Assembly: GCF_050920415.1 (NCBI RefSeq)
Contig: NZ_CP169309.1
Length of the DNA stretch: 64,000 nucleotides
Source of the DNA: Escherichia coli
GTDB lineage: Bacteria; Pseudomonadota; Gammaproteobacteria; Enterobacterales; Enterobacteriaceae
Direction: 5' to 3' (one strand)
The notes under the pieces were generated by a model that saw nothing but the letters and a program-made list of their open reading frames with translations, did not search any database and was not told where the DNA came from. The translations under genes and the position numbers were made by a program. Position 1 is the stretch's first letter. The number at the start of each line of letters is the position of its first letter. Below, one piece after another: positions 12,303 to 34,349 of the stretch.

Positions 12303-12456
12303 ACGGCGTTGCGCATTCTCATTGCACCCAAATTTATTCTTCACAAAAATAATAATAGATTTTATTACGCGAACGATTATTTATTTCCTGAATAAACAAA
12401 TAAAAAAATCCCCGCCATTTGGCAGGGATCTTAGATTCTGTGCTTTTAAGCAGAGA

Positions 12457-12669
12457 TTACAGGCTGGTTACGTTACCAGCTGCCGGGCCTTTAGCGCCGC
12501 TTTCGATGGTGAAGGACACTTTCTGACCTTCGTCCAGAGATTTGTAACCATCGTTCTGGATAGCAGAGAAGTGTACGAACACGTCTTTAGAACCATCGTC
12601 AGGAGTGATGAAGCCGAAGCCTTTGTCAGCGTTGAACCATTTTACGATACCAGTCATTTTACCGGACAT
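12457..12669 (-). CDS. cspA: major cold-shock protein CspA
   Basis: 70-aa [73 protein letters not shown]; cold-shock domain with RNP motifs. Confidence 0.97.
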
Positions 12670-12828
12670 AGTGTATTACCTTTAATAATTAATTGTGCCT
12701 TTCGGCGATATGGCGTGCTTTACAGATTTTGAAGCGTTAAAGGAAATGCACACTACGAGGGGTATCAACGATAACTCTTGAAGGGACTTGCCTTACTACA
12801 CTGCTTTAATGGTCTGTACGTCAAACCG
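12670..12828 (-). promoter_or_regulatory. long cspA 5' untranslated leader (cold-box containing)
   Basis: About 159 nt between the cspA start codon and a sequence whose reverse complement begins ACGGTTTGACGTACAGACC, matching the known cspA transcript 5' end from memory. Confidence 0.6.
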
Positions 12829-12950
12829 TTGAAGTGCATTAAGCCACGCATTGGTGGGTGATGCAACAATTATTTTTCATATTTATGATTAATCGGTTGG
12901 AAAACGGTCCTGTCATCAGGACCGTAAACAGCAATAAAGTGGATAAAAGT

Positions 12951-22242: not shown

Positions 22243-23934
22243 ATGAGATACATCAAATCGATTACACAGCAGAAGCTGAGCTTTTTGCTTGCAATCTATA
22301 TTGGCCTTTTTATGAATGGCGCGGTTTTTTACCGCCGCTTCGGCAGCTATGCGCACGATTTTACCGTCTGGAAAGGCGTTTCTGCTGTTGTTGAACTGGT
22401 CGCTACCGTACTGGTGACCTTCTTTTTACTGCGTCTGCTTTCGCTGTTTGGCCGCCGCAGCTGGCGAATTCTGGCATCGCTGGTGGTGCTCTTTTCTGCA
22501 GGTGCCAGCTATTACATGACTTTCCTTAATGTGGTCATTGGTTATGGCATCATCGCATCCGTCATGACCACCGATATCGATCTGTCAAAAGAAGTTGTTG
22601 GTCTGAACTTTATTCTCTGGTTAATCGCCGTAAGCGCATTACCTCTTATCCTTATCTGGAATAACCGCTGTCGCTACACCTTGCTCCGACAACTGCGAAC
22701 CCCAGGGCAACGTATTCGGAGTCTGGCGGTCGTCGTACTGGCAGGTATTATGGTTTGGGCACCGATTCGTTTGCTGGATATCCAGCAGAAGAAAGTGGAG
22801 AGGGCGACAGGTGTTGATTTGCCGAGTTATGGTGGCGTTGTCGCGAACTCTTATCTGCCATCAAACTGGCTTTCGGCGTTAGGTCTTTATGCCTGGGCGC
22901 GGGTCGATGAATCTTCCGATAACAATTCTCTCCTTAACCCTGCGAAGAAGTTTACGTACCAGGCTCCACAAAACGTTGATGATACATATGTCGTTTTCAT
23001 TATTGGTGAAACCACGCGCTGGGATCATATGGGCATTTTCGGCTATGAACGCAATACCACACCGAAACTGGCTCAGGAGAAAAATCTGGCGGCGTTTCGT
23101 GGCTATTCTTGTGACACGGCGACCAAACTTTCTCTGCGTTGCATGTTTGTGCGTCAGGGTGGAGCAGAAGATAATCCGCAGCGCACATTAAAAGAACAGA
23201 ACATTTTCGCGGTATTGAAGCAGTTAGGATTCAGTTCTGATCTCTACGCTATGCAAAGCGAAATGTGGTTCTACAGCAACACGATGGCAGACAACATTGC
23301 TTATCGTGAGCAGATTGGTGCGGAGCCACGTAACCGTGGCAAGCCGGTAGATGATATGTTGCTGGTAGACGAAATGCAGCAATCGCTGGGGCGCAACCCG
23401 GATGGCAAGCATCTGATCATTTTGCATACCAAAGGTTCGCACTTTAACTACACCCAGCGTTACCCGCGCAGCTTTGCGCAGTGGAAGCCGGAATGTATTG
23501 GTGTTGATAGCGGCTGTACCAAAGCGCAGATGATCAACTCCTATGACAACTCGGTGACCTATGTGGATCACTTTATCTCCAGCGTGATTGATCAGGTTCG
23601 CGATAAGAAAGCGATTGTGTTCTACGCAGCTGACCACGGTGAGTCAATTAACGAACGCGAGCACCTGCACGGCACACCGCGTGAACTGGCACCGCCGGAG
23701 CAGTTCCGCGTACCGATGATGGTCTGGATGTCGGATAAATATCTGGAAAATCCAGCCAACGCGCAGGCATTTGCGCAGTTGAAAAAAGAAGCTGATATGA
23801 AAGTGCCACGCCGTCACGTAGAGCTGTACGACACCATCATGGGTTGTCTTGGCTATACTTCACCGGACGGTGGTATTAACGAAAACAACAACTGGTGTCA
23901 CATCCCGCAGGCGAAAGAGGTCGTGGCTAACTAA
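22243..23934 (+). CDS. eptB: Kdo2-lipid A phosphoethanolamine transferase EptB
   Basis: ORF 22210..23934; start chosen at [16 protein letters not shown] (563 aa); N-terminal TM helices plus sulfatase-like domain. Confidence 0.85.
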
Positions 23935-24025
23935 GAGGCCTGCTGACTTTCTCGCCGATCAAAAGGCATTTTGCTATTAAGGGATTGACGAGGGCGTATC
24001 TGCGCAGTAAGATGCGCCCCGCATT

Positions 24026-24102
<77 letters not shown>

Positions 24103-24108
24103 AATTCG

Positions 24109-24137
24109 AAAAGCCTGCTCAGCGAGCAGGCTTTTTT
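24109..24137 (+). terminator. rho-independent terminator after tRNA-Pro
   Basis: AGCCTGCTC-AGCG-AGCAGGCT hairpin followed by TTTTTT. Confidence 0.7.
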
Positions 24138-24152
24138 GCATTTGAAGCCCAT

Positions 24153-24270
24153 GAGGATGAGAACCTCCGGGGGCGGGGAGGTTCGACTCGAGCGAAGCGA
24201 GAGAACGTTGCGCCAGCAACGGCCCGCAGGGCGAGCCACGAAGTGGCGAGTAATCCTCTATCACCGACCA
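24153..24270 (+). repeat. tRNA-Pro 3'-end-containing repeat unit 1 (T-arm start, about 63-nt insert, then the last 19 nt of tRNA-Pro)
   Basis: Begins with GGAGGTTCGA (tRNA T-stem) and ends AATCCTCTATCACCGACCA, identical to the proK 3' end; followed by its own terminator at about 24277..24304. Confidence 0.6.
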
Positions 24271-24276
24271 ATTTAG

Positions 24277-24304
24277 AAAAACCAGCCTACGGGCTGGTTT
24301 TTTG
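24277..24304 (+). terminator. rho-independent terminator after repeat unit 1
   Basis: CCAGCC-TACG-GGCTGG hairpin followed by TTTTTT. Confidence 0.6.
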
Positions 24305-24320
24305 CTTTCTGCGGCCTGAA

Positions 24321-24424
24321 GAGGATGAGAACTTCCGGGGGCAGGGAGGTTCGACTCCAGCAAAGCGAGAGAACGTTGTGGCAGCAACGGCCCGCAGTGG
24401 CGAGTAATCCTCTGGCACCGACCA
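24321..24424 (+). repeat. tRNA-Pro 3'-end-containing repeat unit 2 (diverged copy of unit 1 with a 14-nt deletion)
   Basis: About 85 percent identical to unit 1; ends AATCCTCTGGCACCGACCA (two mismatches to the proK 3' end). Confidence 0.6.
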
Positions 24425-24433
24425 AATCTGAAC

Positions 24434-24519
24434 GTAGGCCTGATAAGACGCGTCAGCGCCGCATCAGGCAACGGCACCGCACTTATTGTCGGATGCGGCG
24501 TGAACGCCTTATCTGACCG
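24434..24519. repeat. REP/BIME element (two inverted REP palindromes)
   Basis: GTAGGCCTGATAAGACGCGTCAGCGCCGCATCAGGCA and CGGATGCGGCGTGAACGCCTTATC: canonical REP consensus. Confidence 0.8.
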
Positions 24520-25056
24520 ACACACCACATATTTCCCTGCCAAATTTGCGCCCCACATCTCACTATCCATTAACGGATTTGTGACAGAATCCATTGTCTT
24601 TTTTTATATTTGCTTAAATCTTTTTTTGCGTTACTTATGGCTGGCGCTGGTATTTTCCGCTGTGCGTTTTAGCGTTCATGGTATTAATCGCTCAGATATC
24701 CATCTTTTCCTCAGATTTTTTTCATTAAATGCATAAAACTTAATCACCAAATGTTGCTAAATATTAAGCTGATTGTTCTGGTTATGTTGGCGTAGCACAA
24801 ATTTCTCTGCTGCAAATAGCTGTTTGAAGTTTTTTTAATCTTTGTTTGTGGATTCTCACCGTTGGTGTAAATCCCGGTTGGCTGTATTGACGTTTTCACA
24901 TTCTGTTGACAGATTGTAGGTCACGAGGGGCATTTTATGGAGGATCCGCACTGTTACACTGATGTTAATTAGTACGGCATCCCCACCTCATAACGTTGAC
25001 CCGACCGGGTAAAAAACAAAAAAGGTCAGGCAGCGACAACCCACTGCAAAGGGTTA

Positions 25057-25073
25057 AAACAACAAACATCACA
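25057..25073 (+). promoter_or_regulatory. CA-rich element in the dppA leader (candidate GcvB sRNA pairing site)
   Basis: AACAACAAACATCACAA about 15 nt upstream of the dppA Shine-Dalgarno (GGAG); GcvB targets CA-rich sites in dppA. Confidence 0.45.
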
Positions 25074-25087
25074 ATTGGAGCAGAATA

Positions 25088-26695
25088 ATGCGTATTTCCT
25101 TGAAAAAGTCAGGGATGCTGAAGCTTGGTCTCAGCCTGGTGGCTATGACCGTCGCAGCAAGTGTTCAGGCTAAAACTCTGGTTTATTGCTCAGAAGGATC
25201 TCCTGAAGGGTTTAACCCGCAGCTGTTTACCTCCGGCACCACCTATGACGCCTCTTCCGTACCGCTTTATAACCGCCTGGTTGAATTTAAAATCGGCACC
25301 ACTGAAGTGATTCCGGGCCTCGCTGAAAAGTGGGAAGTCAGCGAAGACGGTAAAACCTATACCTTCCATCTGCGTAAAGGTGTGAAGTGGCATAACAACA
25401 AAGAATTCAAACCGACGCGCGAACTGAATGCCGATGACGTGGTGTTCTCGTTCGATCGTCAGAAAAACGCACAAAACCCGTACCATAAAGTTTCTGGCGG
25501 TAGCTACGAATACTTCGAAGGTATGGGCTTGCCGGAGCTGATCAGCGAAGTGAAAAAGGTGGACGACAACACCGTTCAGTTCGTGCTGACTCGCCCGGAA
25601 GCGCCGTTCCTTGCTGACCTGGCAATGGACTTCGCCTCTATTCTGTCAAAAGAATATGCTGACGCGATGATGAAAGCCGGTACGCCGGAAAAACTGGACC
25701 TTAACCCAATCGGCACCGGCCCGTTCCAGTTACAGCAGTATCAAAAAGATTCCCGTATCCGCTACAAAGCGTTTGATGGCTACTGGGGCACCAAACCACA
25801 GATCGATACGCTGGTCTTCTCTATTACCCCTGACGCTTCCGTGCGTTACGCTAAATTGCAGAAAAATGAATGCCAGGTGATGCCGTACCCGAACCCGGCA
25901 GACATCGCCCGCATGAAGCAGGATAAATCCATCAACCTGATGGAAATGCCGGGGCTGAACGTCGGCTATCTCTCGTATAACGTGCAGAAAAAACCACTGG
26001 ATGACGTGAAAGTTCGCCAGGCACTGACCTATGCGGTGAACAAAGACGCGATTATCAAAGCAGTGTATCAGGGCGCGGGCGTATCAGCGAAAAACCTGAT
26101 CCCGCCAACCATGTGGGGCTATAACGATGATGTTCAGGACTACACCTACGATCCTGAAAAAGCGAAAGCCTTGCTGAAAGAAGCGGGTCTGGAAAAAGGC
26201 TTCTCTATCGACCTGTGGGCAATGCCGGTACAACGTCCGTATAACCCGAACGCTCGTCGCATGGCAGAGATGATTCAGGCAGACTGGGCGAAAGTCGGCG
26301 TACAAGCGAAAATCGTTACCTACGAATGGGGTGAGTACCTCAAGCGTGCAAAAGATGGCGAGCACCAGACGGTAATGATGGGCTGGACTGGCGACAACGG
26401 GGATCCGGATAACTTCTTCGCTACCCTGTTCAGCTGCGCTGCCTCTGAACAAGGCTCCAACTACTCAAAATGGTGCTACAAACCGTTTGAAGATCTGATT
26501 CAACCGGCGCGTGCTACCGACGACCACAACAAGCGTGTTGAACTGTACAAACAAGCACAGGTCGTGATGCACGATCAGGCTCCGGCACTGATCATCGCTC
26601 ACTCCACCGTGTTTGAACCGGTACGCAAAGAAGTTAAAGGCTATGTGGTTGATCCATTAGGCAAACATCACTTCGAAAACGTCTCTATCGAATAA
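25088..26695 (+). CDS. dppA: dipeptide ABC transporter periplasmic binding protein DppA
   Basis: 535-aa ORF starting MRISLKKSGMLKLGLSLVAMTVAASVQAKTLVYCSEG; recognised as DppA. Confidence 0.97.
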   Translation: MRISLKKSGMLKLGLSLVAMTVAASVQAKTLVYCSEGSPEGFNPQLFTSGTTYDASSVPLYNRLVEFKIGTTEVIPGLAEKWEVSEDGKTYTFHLRKGVKWHNNKEFKPTRELNADDVVFSFDRQKNAQNPYHKVSGGSYEYFEGMGLPELISEVKKVDDNTVQFVLTRPEAPFLADLAMDFASILSKEYADAMMKAGTPEKLDLNPIGTGPFQLQQYQKDSRIRYKAFDGYWGTKPQIDTLVFSITPDASVRYAKLQKNECQVMPYPNPADIARMKQDKSINLMEMPGLNVGYLSYNVQKKPLDDVKVRQALTYAVNKDAIIKAVYQGAGVSAKNLIPPTMWGYNDDVQDYTYDPEKAKALLKEAGLEKGFSIDLWAMPVQRPYNPNARRMAEMIQADWAKVGVQAKIVTYEWGEYLKRAKDGEHQTVMMGWTGDNGDPDNFFATLFSCAASEQGSNYSKWCYKPFEDLIQPARATDDHNKRVELYKQAQVVMHDQAPALIIAHSTVFEPVRKEVKGYVVDPLGKHHFENVSIE

Positions 26696-26732: not shown

Positions 26733-26831
<99 letters not shown>

Positions 26832-30958: not shown

Positions 30959-32230
30959 TTACTCAATCAGCTTCAACAGTGGCGACAAGCATAACAAAAT
31001 GCCGTACAGCAGAATCATCCAGGCTTTAAACCCGCGAAGTTTTTCCAGTTGTGAGACTTTATAGATCAGGAAAAATGGAATGAGGCACGACACAATGCCA
31101 TATAACGGGCTTCCCAACTGAAAGAACACCAGCACCGATACACGAAACGAAACCCAAATCGTCAACGTAATGACGATAAAAGCGCAGATCGCCAGAGTCA
31201 GCATGCGTGAGTTAATTTTCTGGGTATCAATAATTCGGCTTAACAGATTGAGAATAATGCCTTTAATGGCCTCGTGGAAACCGAGATAAATGCCAAAGAA
31301 TGCGGTCAGTACGGCAAAGATATTCAGCACCGTAGAGGTGATATGAATGATATGCCCAGGGATCACCTGCGCGGCCAGTGCCAGTGCCGAGATATTTTGT
31401 TCAAAGGCAGAAACGGCTTCTTCGTGGCTAATTGAGAAGGTAAACGAAAAGGCAAAAAACAGGATCACCGCGATGAGCGTGACATAACTAATTCGGTGGG
31501 TACGCAGCGCGAGCCGGGTTGCCAGTACTTTATCCGCTTCCCGTTTACGATAGGCAATATTCATTGGGTTAAGTACCTGAATAAATACCGCAGAAAAGAA
31601 GCAAAAGGGAATGGTAAGCAGGACATCGCGGAAAAAGACGGAGGCTTGCGGGAAGGCGGTTATATTGGCGAAATTCCAGTGCGGGATCATCGCAAAACCG
31701 AACACGACGATAATCCCTACTTTGACCACCACCATTGGCCCGGAAATCTTAAACAGTAATCGTTCACCACCAGACGCAATTGCCACCAGTACGGCGAAAA
31801 TGGCGACTTTATAAAGTAGAGATTGTGAAAGATCGGCATCGGTTAAACCGAAGGTTTTCAGGTACGAGGCGCTGTCGAAAACCACGGAGAGAGAGTAGAT
31901 AAAAATCCCGTGGATAATCATCAAAAAGTAGATAACCCCGAGGAAAATTCCCCAGTTCTTCCCCAGGTAATGACTGATAATATCGGTGTAGTCATTACAG
32001 GAATCGCTTTCAGAAAGGGTTTTTAAATAAATGTCCTGCACTACCCAGGTGGCAGGATAAGCAATGATCGCTGCGGTAATAAATACCCAAATTCCCTTCA
32101 AGCCAATTTGTACTGGCATCAGCACGGTTCCGGCACCAATCGCCATGCCTATGCATAATAAAACCCAGCCGAAGTCGTAGCGTGTAAACGGCATTTTCTG
32201 ATCGTGTTTCGGTAGTGTGTTGTGCTGCAT
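30959..32230 (-). CDS. yhjV: putative amino-acid transporter YhjV (HAAAP/serine-transporter-like)
   Basis: ORF 30959..32293; start chosen at [15 protein letters not shown] (423 aa); polytopic membrane protein. Confidence 0.8.
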
Positions 32231-32385: not shown

Positions 32386-32585
32386 ATTTCACTACCAGTC
32401 TGGAGTCAGCCCGGATATGAACTGCAACTATTGCAAATAAAGAAATTAAGCTGGAAGGCATCACGCAATGAGGAAGATTGCCGGGTGCTGACGGTAAAAA
32501 GCAATCGTAAAATCAGCGGCAAGCCGGAAAGGTTCCGGTGAGGCGCAATGTTGCGGGGGCTTAATCCCTGGTGGCATTGGTTGCT

Positions 32586-32654
32586 GGAGAGAGAAAACCC
32601 CCGCACGTTGCAGATATTCACCTGACAACATCACGGGGGCTAATCTTGAACCTA
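32586..32654 (-). ncRNA. rdlD: Rdl antisense RNA, copy 1 (approximate ends)
   Basis: Minus-strand reading gives a GC-stem hairpin (CCCCCG...CGGGGG) followed by UUUUCUCUC; -10-like TATTCT upstream on minus strand; ends inferred from the Rdl family. Confidence 0.45.
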
Positions 32655-32705
32655 GACCACTCAAGAATAGCCGCGAAACGTTGTCATTACAACACAGGCG
32701 GCTAT

Positions 32706-32813
32706 ATGACGCTCGCAGAACTGGGCATGGCCTTCTGGCATGATTTAGCGGCTCCGGTCATTGCTGGCATTCTTGCCAGTCTGATCGTGAACTGGCTGAA
32801 CAAGCGGAAGTAA
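32706..32813 (+). CDS. ldrD: Ldr type I toxin peptide, copy 1 (35 aa)
   Basis: MTLAELGMAFWHDLAAPVIAGILASLIVNWLNKRK; Ldr family small hydrophobic toxin. Confidence 0.85.
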   Translation: MTLAELGMAFWHDLAAPVIAGILASLIVNWLNKRK

Positions 32814-33071
32814 CGTGTCAGACGGGCGTCAGGCTGCCGTAATGGCAATTTGCGCCCGGACCAGGCCGCAGGGATAAAACTCTGCGGCCTTTTTCGTAAG
32901 AAAAATGCAACGGTTGCAAGCGGATAATATTCTGCGGAATGCGCAGCACAGAGTGAAGAAGTGATGGATTCTGGAACAGAAAAACAGTCGTAGAATCAGC
33001 GGCAAGCCGGAAGGGTTCCGGTGAGGCGCAATGTTGCGGGGGCTTTATCCCTGGTGGCATTGGTTGCTGGA

Positions 33072-33140
33072 GAGAGAAAACCCCCGCACGTTGCAGGTAT
33101 GCACCTGACAACATCACGGGGGCCATTCTTGCATCCAAAC
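33072..33140 (-). ncRNA. rdlD: Rdl antisense RNA, copy 2 (approximate ends)
   Basis: Same structure as copy 1; minus-strand promoter-like TTGTAA, 17-bp spacer, TATTCT. Confidence 0.45.
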
Positions 33141-33188
33141 AATACAAGAATAGCCGCGAAACGTTGTCATTACAACAGAGGCGGCTAT

Positions 33189-33296
33189 ATGACGCTCGCA
33201 GAACTGGGCATGGCCTTCTGGCATGATTTAGCGGCTCCGGTCATTGCTGGCATTCTTGCCAGTCTGATCGTGAACTGGCTGAACAAGCGGAAGTAA
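33189..33296 (+). CDS. ldrD: Ldr type I toxin peptide, copy 2 (35 aa)
   Basis: MTLAELGMAFWHDLAAPVIAGILASLIVNWLNKRK. Confidence 0.85.
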   Translation: MTLAELGMAFWHDLAAPVIAGILASLIVNWLNKRK

Positions 33297-33555
33297 CGTG
33301 TCAGACGGGCGTCAGGCTGCCGTAATGGCAATTTGCGCCCGGACCAGGCCGCAGGGATAAAACTCTGCGGCCTTTTTCGTAAGAAAAATGCAACGGTTGC
33401 AAGCGGATAATATTCTGCGGAATGCGCAGCACAGAGTGAAGAAGTGATGGATTTCGACGAACAAAAATGGCCGTAGAATCAGCGGCAAGCCGGAAGGGTT
33501 CCGGTGAGGCGCAATGTTGCGGGGGGCTTTATCCCTGGTGGCATTGGTTGCTGGA

Positions 33556-33624
33556 GAGAGAAAACCCCCGCACGTTGCAGGTATGCACCTGACAACACCA
33601 CGGGGGCCATTCTTGCATCTAGAC
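33556..33624 (-). ncRNA. rdlD: Rdl antisense RNA, copy 3 (approximate ends)
   Basis: Same structure as copies 1-2. Confidence 0.45.
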
Positions 33625-33672
33625 CATTCAAGAATAGCCGCGAAACGTTGTCATTACAACAGAGGCGGCTAT

Positions 33673-33780
33673 ATGACGCTCGCAGAGCTGGGCATGGCCT
33701 TCTGGCATGATTTAGCGGCTCCGGTCATTGCTGGCATTCTTGCCAGCATGATCGTGAACTGGCTGAACAAGCGGAAGTAA
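33673..33780 (+). CDS. ldrD: Ldr type I toxin peptide, copy 3 (35 aa)
   Basis: MTLAELGMAFWHDLAAPVIAGILASMIVNWLNKRK (L26M relative to copies 1-2). Confidence 0.85.
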   Translation: MTLAELGMAFWHDLAAPVIAGILASMIVNWLNKRK

Positions 33781-34038
33781 CGTGTCAGACGGGCGTCAGG
33801 CTGCCGTAATGGCAATTTGCGCCCGGATCAGGCCGCAGGGATAAAACTCTGCGGCCTTTTTCGTAAGAAAAATGCAACGGTTGCAAGCGGATAATATTCT
33901 GCGGAATGCGCAGCACAGAGTGAAGAAGTGACGGATTCCGGAACAGAAAAACAGTCGTAGAATTAGCGGCAAGCCGGAAGGGTTCCGGTGAGGCGCAATG
34001 TTGCGGGGGCTTTATCCCTGGTGGCATTGGTTGCTGGA

Positions 34039-34107
34039 GAGAGAAAACCCCCGCACGTTGCAGGTATGCACCTGACAACATCACGGGGGCTAATCTTGAA
34101 CCCAAAC
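34039..34107 (-). ncRNA. rdlD: Rdl antisense RNA, copy 4 (approximate ends)
   Basis: Same structure as copies 1-3. Confidence 0.45.
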
Positions 34108-34155
34108 AACTCAAGAATAGCCGCGAAACGTTGTCATTACAACAGAGGCGGCTAT

Positions 34156-34263
34156 ATGACGCTCGCAGAACTGGGCATGGCCTTCTGGCATGATTTAGCG
34201 GCTCCGGTCATTGCTGGCATTCTTGCCAGTCTGATCGTGAACTCGCTGAATAAGTGGAAGTAA
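34156..34263 (+). CDS. ldrD: Ldr type I toxin peptide, copy 4 (35 aa, variant C-terminus)
   Basis: MTLAELGMAFWHDLAAPVIAGILASLIVNSLNKWK (W30S and R34W relative to copies 1-2). Confidence 0.8.
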   Translation: MTLAELGMAFWHDLAAPVIAGILASLIVNSLNKWK

Positions 34264-34349
34264 CGTGTCATGCGGGCGTCAGGCTGCCGTAATGGCAATT
34301 TGCGCCCGGATCAGGCCGCAGGGGTGAAACTCTGCGGCCTTTTTCGTTC

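Follow-up and report, generated by a model that had tools for sequence, protein, structure and literature searches.

The C/A-rich element of the dppA leader in an Escherichia coli chromosome as the known GcvB target site and ACA-motif translation enhancer

The dppA locus and its leader

The stretch of DNA analysed here (64 kb; hereafter the window) is part of an Escherichia coli chromosome. Its segment 24000–25200 was 100% identical to strain MFDS1022581 (NZ_CP169399.1) and shared 95–99% identity with nearly every other complete E. coli genome. NZ_CP169399.1, the closest genome, departed from the window across the whole 64 kb by a few SNPs and a single ldr repeat unit, and the two are not byte-identical. 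The local gene order was eptB, tRNA-Pro(CGG), dppA and then dppBCDF, and the features discussed below are collected in Table 1.

Table 1. Coordinates of genes, repeats and leader features in the window
Feature	Position	Strand	Basis or remark
eptB	22243–23934		local gene order
tRNA-Pro(CGG) (proK)	24026–24102		
RtT repeats, two	24137–24270 and 24304–24424		Rfam matches
naRNA4 (CssrE) match, REP-derived	24437–24518	minus	Rfam; upstream of the dppA promoter region
AT-rich stretch, 32–38% GC	about 24550–24880		
Probable -35 hexamer TTGACG	24887–24892	+	sequence, 17 bp upstream of CAGATT; conserved in enterobacterial alignments
Invariant block TTGACAGATTGT with probable extended -10 TG-a-CAGATT (24907–24915; hexamer 24910–24915)	24906–24917	+	
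dppA 5' untranslated leader, 165 nt, start 24923	24923–25087	+	PMC1807950
Conserved hairpin with 17-nt A-rich loop GGGUAAAAAACAAAAAA (25007–25023)	24996–25033	+	MFE fold and RNAalifold consensus
C/A-rich element AACAACAAACAUCACAA, GcvB R1 target and translation enhancer (probability about 0.95)	25058–25074	+	four ACA within 25059–25073
Predicted GcvB duplex, GcvB nt 82–62, G75 bulged	25058–25077	+	RNAduplex, -24.9 kcal/mol
Shine-Dalgarno GGAG, 2 nt downstream of the element	25077–25080	+	sequence; invariant in 17 genera
dppA coding sequence, 535 aa, periplasmic dipeptide-binding protein	25088–26695	+	ORF and RefSeq annotation of the near-identical genome
ES036 (CssrF) match	26754–26796	minus	Rfam; inside the 307-bp dppA–dppB spacer
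yhjV, poorly characterised HAAAP-family amino-acid transporter	30959–32230	minus	convergent, just downstream of dppF
Tandem array of four ldr/rdlD type I toxin-antitoxin units	32497–34347		483-bp period x3.8; four Ldr ORFs, four Rfam rdlD matches

The distance from the end of tRNA-Pro(CGG) at 24102 to the dppA ATG was 985 bp, and not about 490 bp as a sequence-only reading of the same DNA had given for the proK–dppA interval. This interval was occupied mostly by the two RtT repeats, a REP element and the AT-rich region upstream of the promoter. The RtT repeats formed a 168-bp tandem unit present 1.9 times (24084–24424), which began within the 3' end of the tRNA-Pro gene. Among the E. coli matches listed, the annotation shows a single RtT copy in several genomes and two in others, and coverage of the 24000–25200 query reached at least 80% in only 3377 of the 5422 E. 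coli matches; on both grounds, the RtT repeat appears to be polymorphic in copy number. The naRNA4 match overlapped REP-type palindromes that could be read from the sequence. A search of 24500–25150 against Rfam matched no family, even at E ≤ 1, so that nothing points to a further known leader element. The suggestion that the long interval left room for additional leader-based regulation accordingly found no support, as the leader comprises only 165 nt.

Two further observations concern other parts of the window. A full-length cspA thermoregulator (Rfam, 493 bits) was matched at 12402–12830 on the minus strand, over the leader and coding sequence of a gene that RefSeq names cspE, a name that looks like a discrepancy of automatic annotation. 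The ldr array comprised four units in the window and five in NZ_CP169399.1, while K-12 carries a single ldrD/rdlD at the ldr locus.

The published E. coli dppA::gfp fusion was cloned from the annotated transcription start, with the 5' end of its insert at -165 (Urban & Vogel 2007, PMC1807950). This start corresponds to position 24923 of the window and lies 135 nt upstream of the C/A-rich element, not downstream of it, the arrangement that the earlier reading had regarded as incompatible with a GcvB site. Given the published start and the conservation of the region, TTGACG and TG-a-CAGATT are the probable dppA promoter. All 12 columns of TTGACAGATTGT were invariant across 17 Enterobacteriaceae genera, and the block was more conserved than the flanking -35 region and the leader; it fits an extended -10, and could alternatively be the binding site of a regulator. 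A sigma-70 consensus scanner missed TTGACG and CAGATT, and its sole match, at 24581–24610, was unrelated to the dppA promoter. Comparison of 24880–25100 with K-12 MG1655 revealed a single difference, T versus C at 25010. Since the promoter and leader are otherwise identical, experiments performed in K-12 apply directly to this locus.

The 17-mer AACAACAAACATCACAA occurred once in the window, at 25058–25074 on the plus strand. The sequence-only reading had recognised this element correctly and had placed it one base too far to the left (25057–25073); its location directly upstream of the dppA ribosome-binding site was likewise borne out. The element spans -30 to -14 relative to the ATG at 25088, that is, 14–30 nt upstream of it, and 16 of its 17 bases are C or A. 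The four ACA motifs have the arrangement ACAACAAACATCACA at 25059–25073. By composition, the element was at chance level: the window contained 11 clusters of 17-mers with at least 16 C or A on both strands, against 10.8 ± 2.9 in dinucleotide shuffles. Similarly, four ACA motifs within 15 nt were found in one cluster on either strand, that of dppA, against 2.9 ± 1.7 expected from dinucleotide shuffles. The exact consensus of R1 targets, CACAACA, was absent from the element, where the nearest matches were AACAACA (6/7) and then AUCACAA. CACAACA is a statistical motif of R1 targets that does not strictly define them. As dppA is a founding member of the GcvB target set, the absence of the exact heptamer was not counted against membership.

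We folded the region from -165 to +45. The mean predicted probability of being unpaired was 0.90 over the element, compared with 0.49 over the leader overall, and both the element and the Shine-Dalgarno sequence were unpaired in the RNAalifold consensus structure of 17 enterobacterial genera. The same alignment contained compensatory changes at 3 of the 7 stem pairs of the hairpin at 24996–25033, whose A-rich loop lies about 35 nt upstream of the GcvB site. The first base of this A-rich loop, 25010, is the one at which the window (T) differs from K-12 (C). Hfq has an about 10-fold higher affinity for the first 166 nt of dppA mRNA than for GcvB, and binding through the distal face has been predicted (Tree et al. 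2014, PMC4104026). The A-rich loop is thus a likely binding site for the distal face of Hfq (ARN).

Complementarity to GcvB and conservation of the element

Pairing was computed with the K-12 GcvB sequence (NC_000913.3, 2942696–2942901; 206 nt), which was scanned at full length against the leader from -170 to +40 by windowed RNAduplex. An RNAduplex run without windows had returned an end-to-end "duplex" of -99 kcal/mol, which was rejected as meaningless in favour of the windowed scans. Every top solution joined GcvB nt 51–92, the R1 region, to window positions 25044–25086. The core duplex comprised 20 bp with GcvB nt 62–82, arranged as 7 Watson-Crick pairs, the bulged G75 and 13 further pairs including 2 G-U, and its last base in the leader was the first G of the Shine-Dalgarno GGAG (25077). 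A longer duplex running through the Shine-Dalgarno sequence reached -29.2 kcal/mol but would require the opening of GcvB stem-loop 1.

The specificity of this match depended on how it was counted. When only Watson-Crick pairs were allowed, with at most one interruption, the helix at dppA comprised 17 pairs, which was the unique maximum in the 64 kb on both strands (next best, 12) and was reached by 0 of 200 dinucleotide shuffles (mean maximum, 13.0; highest, 16). Pairing with GcvB R1, which the sequence-only reading had proposed as a check, was thereby found. The raw RNAduplex energy against GcvB nt 61–92 was not exceptional: across 25,590 windows (mean, -13.0; sd, 4.0), the dppA value of -24.9 kcal/mol was lower than the mean by about 3 sd, but many GC-rich windows scored lower still, down to -32.5 kcal/mol. 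Pair counts that admitted G-U were also at chance, with 13 sites of at least 20 pairs in the window and 20 pairs reached by 60 of 60 shuffles. Such counting is uninformative, since every G and U in R1 has two possible partner bases; raw duplex energy and G-U-allowed counts were rejected as statistics and Watson-Crick-only helices were preferred.

Accessibility was then taken into account. After addition of the opening energies (target, 1.0; GcvB, 8.5 kcal/mol), the net energy at dppA was -15.4 kcal/mol, which ranked second among the 49 annotated translation initiation regions in the window (median, -0.9 kcal/mol). These 49 regions were obtained by mapping the RefSeq starts of NZ_CP169399.1 to the window, where the additional ldr unit shifts starts beyond about 33 kb by about 484 bp.

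The sRNA itself was examined in the closest genome. In NZ_CP169399.1, gcvB lies in the ygdI–gcvA spacer (1005623–1005828), is identical to that of K-12 at 206 of 206 positions and scores 199 bits against the Rfam GcvB family (RF00022). Across E. coli, gcvB was at least 99% identical in 5389 of the 5425 genomes with a match. The gene is unannotated in NZ_CP169399.1 and in five other E. coli records among the matches listed.

Of 5422 E. coli genomes, 5320 had a leader of at least 99% identity. The least similar match among those sampled at even spacing along the ranking, a strain of 98.6% identity, retained the element unchanged. For comparison beyond the species, dppA loci were gathered with a degenerate pattern for the conserved DppA peptide YCSEGSPEGFNP, which is blind to the leader; the pattern yielded 120 loci on contigs representing one genome per species, and start codons were then located. 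All 64 dppA orthologues from free-living Enterobacterales carried at least three ACA motifs between -40 and -8, and in each of them pairing with E. coli R1 was predicted at -15 kcal/mol or lower (median, -21.2); these counts are descriptive, as the species are related and not independent samples. The sampled genera included Escherichia, Citrobacter, Enterobacter, Klebsiella, Pantoea, Erwinia, Serratia, Yersinia, Photorhabdus, Xenorhabdus, Proteus, Edwardsiella, Hafnia, Dickeya, Pectobacterium and Rahnella, among others. Throughout these 64 orthologues the element kept its position while the flanking leader diverged. At least three ACA motifs were present in only 1 of 45 more distant homologues (Marinomonas, Alpha- and Betaproteobacteria, Desulfobacterota). 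Six loci had a weak element or none: those of two insect-symbiont Pantoea, Arsenophonus, a Plesiomonas MAG and the Vibrionaceae Grimontia and Enterovibrio.

Interpretation and rival explanations

The locus has been studied in vivo. GcvB represses an E. coli dppA::gfp fusion that starts at -165 by 3.2-fold, and by 1.6-fold in an hfq deletion, so that the translational fusion proposed as a check by the sequence-only reading has already been reported as repressed about 3-fold; in an RNase E truncation mutant the repression persists (4.9-fold) (PMC1807950). The dppA mRNA is listed as a verified R1 target in both E. coli and Salmonella (PMC9299463, Table 1), and RIL-seq, with thousands of chimeras, places it together with CLASH and MAPS among the strongest partners of GcvB (PMC9299463). 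The pairing of R1 with dppA was established with a delta-R1 mutant and footprinting, according to PMC4104026, which cites Sharma 2007. The dppA leader, GcvB and Hfq assemble into a ternary complex (PMC4104026). A 4-nt mutation in the dppA site did not abolish repression, which the authors attribute to the length of the duplex (Tree et al. 2014, PMC4104026). In EHEC, the phage-encoded anti-sRNA AgvB modulates dppA through sequestration of GcvB and not through binding to the mRNA (PMC4104026).

The enhancer activity of the same segment has been described separately. The GcvB target in dppA contains four ACA motifs in 15 nt (PMC3879156). Deletion of this 15-nt segment lowered a Salmonella dppA-lacZ fusion by 96%, and its randomisation left 0.5–5% of the wild-type level (PMC3879156). 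The CA-rich enhancers of gltI and dppA are masked by GcvB (PMC9988348).

We therefore assign the element, with a probability of about 0.95, as the binding site of the Hfq-dependent sRNA GcvB on dppA mRNA and as an ACA-motif translation enhancer. The site is already known: it is the same as the published GcvB–dppA site and not a relative of it. The view of the sequence-only reading that the element is a GcvB-type target and dppA a classical target of this sRNA is supported by the pairing with R1, the conservation and the published repression. For this assignment, sequence, position, complementarity, predicted accessibility, conservation and the identical gcvB of the closest genome were determined here, while in vivo repression, Hfq dependence, R1 dependence, footprinting and enhancer activity are taken from the literature. 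We found no evidence here that contradicts the assignment as a GcvB site.

The following sequence of events is the most likely. Transcription of dppA would start about 165 nt ahead of the ATG, and the open C/A stretch from -30 to -14 would boost the recruitment of the ribosome (30S) at the adjacent Shine-Dalgarno sequence. GcvB, which is made through GcvA in rich medium or with glycine, would anneal through its G/U-rich R1 region (about nt 62–82) to positions -30 to -11 of the leader. Hfq would assist the annealing, probably while bound to the loop of the A-rich hairpin some 35 nt further upstream. The resulting duplex would hide the enhancer and abut the Shine-Dalgarno sequence; binding of the 30S subunit would consequently be blocked and DppA synthesis would fall.

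Three other explanations were weighed. The element could be a translation enhancer only, that is, an unstructured ACA/CA-rich site acting possibly via protein S1, and its complementarity to GcvB would then play no regulatory role. The near-abolition of dppA expression by deletion or randomisation of the ACA segment, independently of GcvB (PMC3879156), the predicted unpaired state of the element and the frequency of C/A-rich stretches in the window would all agree with this. However, the repression of the E. coli leader fusion by GcvB is specific and depends on Hfq (PMC1807950), dppA stands out among GcvB partners in RIL-seq, CLASH and MAPS (PMC9299463), and the 17-pair Watson-Crick match to R1 exceeds what chance would give. 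Loss of repression with GcvB delta-R1 and its restoration by compensatory mutations, reported for Salmonella as cited in PMC4104026, point in the same direction. Moreover, the two roles are not exclusive and the literature shows both, and we regard a purely enhancing function as very improbable. More improbable still is a functionless chance run of C and A that resembles a GcvB site by composition alone. Composition statistics at chance level and unexceptional raw duplex energies would be expected of such a run, whereas no other site in the window equals the Watson-Crick helix to R1, the element holds the same position in 64/64 free-living Enterobacterales with a diverged flanking leader, and published mutagenesis supports function; together with the conservation, this mutagenesis already refutes a chance run.

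Equally little weight can be given to the idea that another factor, either a different G/U-rich sRNA or an RNA-binding protein, mainly targets the element and that GcvB is secondary. We found no evidence here in its support. AgvB acts by sequestering GcvB (PMC4104026), the literature examined reports no other partner, no Rfam element lies over the leader and the site lacks CsrA-type GGA motifs. The RIL-seq and CLASH chimeras, as summarised in PMC9299463, also argue against it.

The known GcvB site and enhancer is thus the reading retained for the element, and it brings no new biology: the GcvB–dppA pair is a founding example of multi-target sRNA regulation and of the silencing of translation enhancers by sRNAs. 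The locus serves as a calibration case in which an experimentally validated regulatory site was recognised from the bare sequence. The site was recovered by Watson-Crick complementarity, by accessibility, by its position at a translation initiation region and by phylogenetic conservation, but not by base composition or by raw duplex energy when G-U wobble was allowed. As the G/U-rich R1 pairs promiscuously through G-U wobble, thermodynamics alone would not single out the site.

A candidate site at yhjV and comparison with known systems

The first codons of yhjV (32230 to about 32209, minus strand) read AUG CAG CAC AAC ACA CUA CCG and contain the R1 consensus CACAACA. The yhjV start had the best accessibility-corrected GcvB energy of the 49 initiation regions (-16.1 kcal/mol). 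By the Watson-Crick-only measure the site was unremarkable and was not among the window sites with at least 11 pairs, and a literature search found no link between yhjV and GcvB. E. albertii retains ACAACACA at the yhjV start; it was the sole informative orthologue, too few to judge conservation. The predicted energy makes yhjV a tentative candidate for an unreported R1 target of GcvB, which we consider rather unlikely to be genuine. If it were, GcvB would control two adjacent uptake systems, dpp and yhjV. A smaller possibility than this is that the A-rich hairpin at 24996–25033 might be a dedicated landing pad for Hfq that is needed for the action of GcvB on dppA.

The closest known system is GcvB–dppA of E. 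coli K-12 and Salmonella Typhimurium (Urbanowski 2000; Sharma 2007; Urban & Vogel 2007; Pulvermacher 2008; Yang 2014), with which the element shares gene, position and sequence. Relative to K-12, the region from the promoter to codon 4 was identical except at 25010, which lies outside the site, and gcvB (that of the closest genome) was identical; relative to Salmonella dppA, the same four ACA motifs in 15 nt were present. The dppA duplex is unusually long among R1 targets (20 bp here), and a 4-nt mutation therefore does not break it (PMC4104026).

The R1 targets oppA, gltI, livJ/K, argT and yifK likewise carry C/A-rich single-stranded sites in or upstream of the ribosome-binding site. The gltI site is said, in the work of Sharma and colleagues from 2007, to lie further upstream of the Shine-Dalgarno sequence than that of dppA. 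All of these mRNAs encode amino-acid or peptide transporters and are bound by R1, and some of their sites double as translation enhancers (PMC9988348, PMC3879156). Enhancer activity of the ACA motifs was measured on Salmonella dppA and not in the strain of the window. With the ACA-motif enhancers described by Yang et al. (2014), the element shares clustered ACA motifs upstream of the Shine-Dalgarno sequence, an unstructured context and, for those enhancers, a requirement for efficient initiation.
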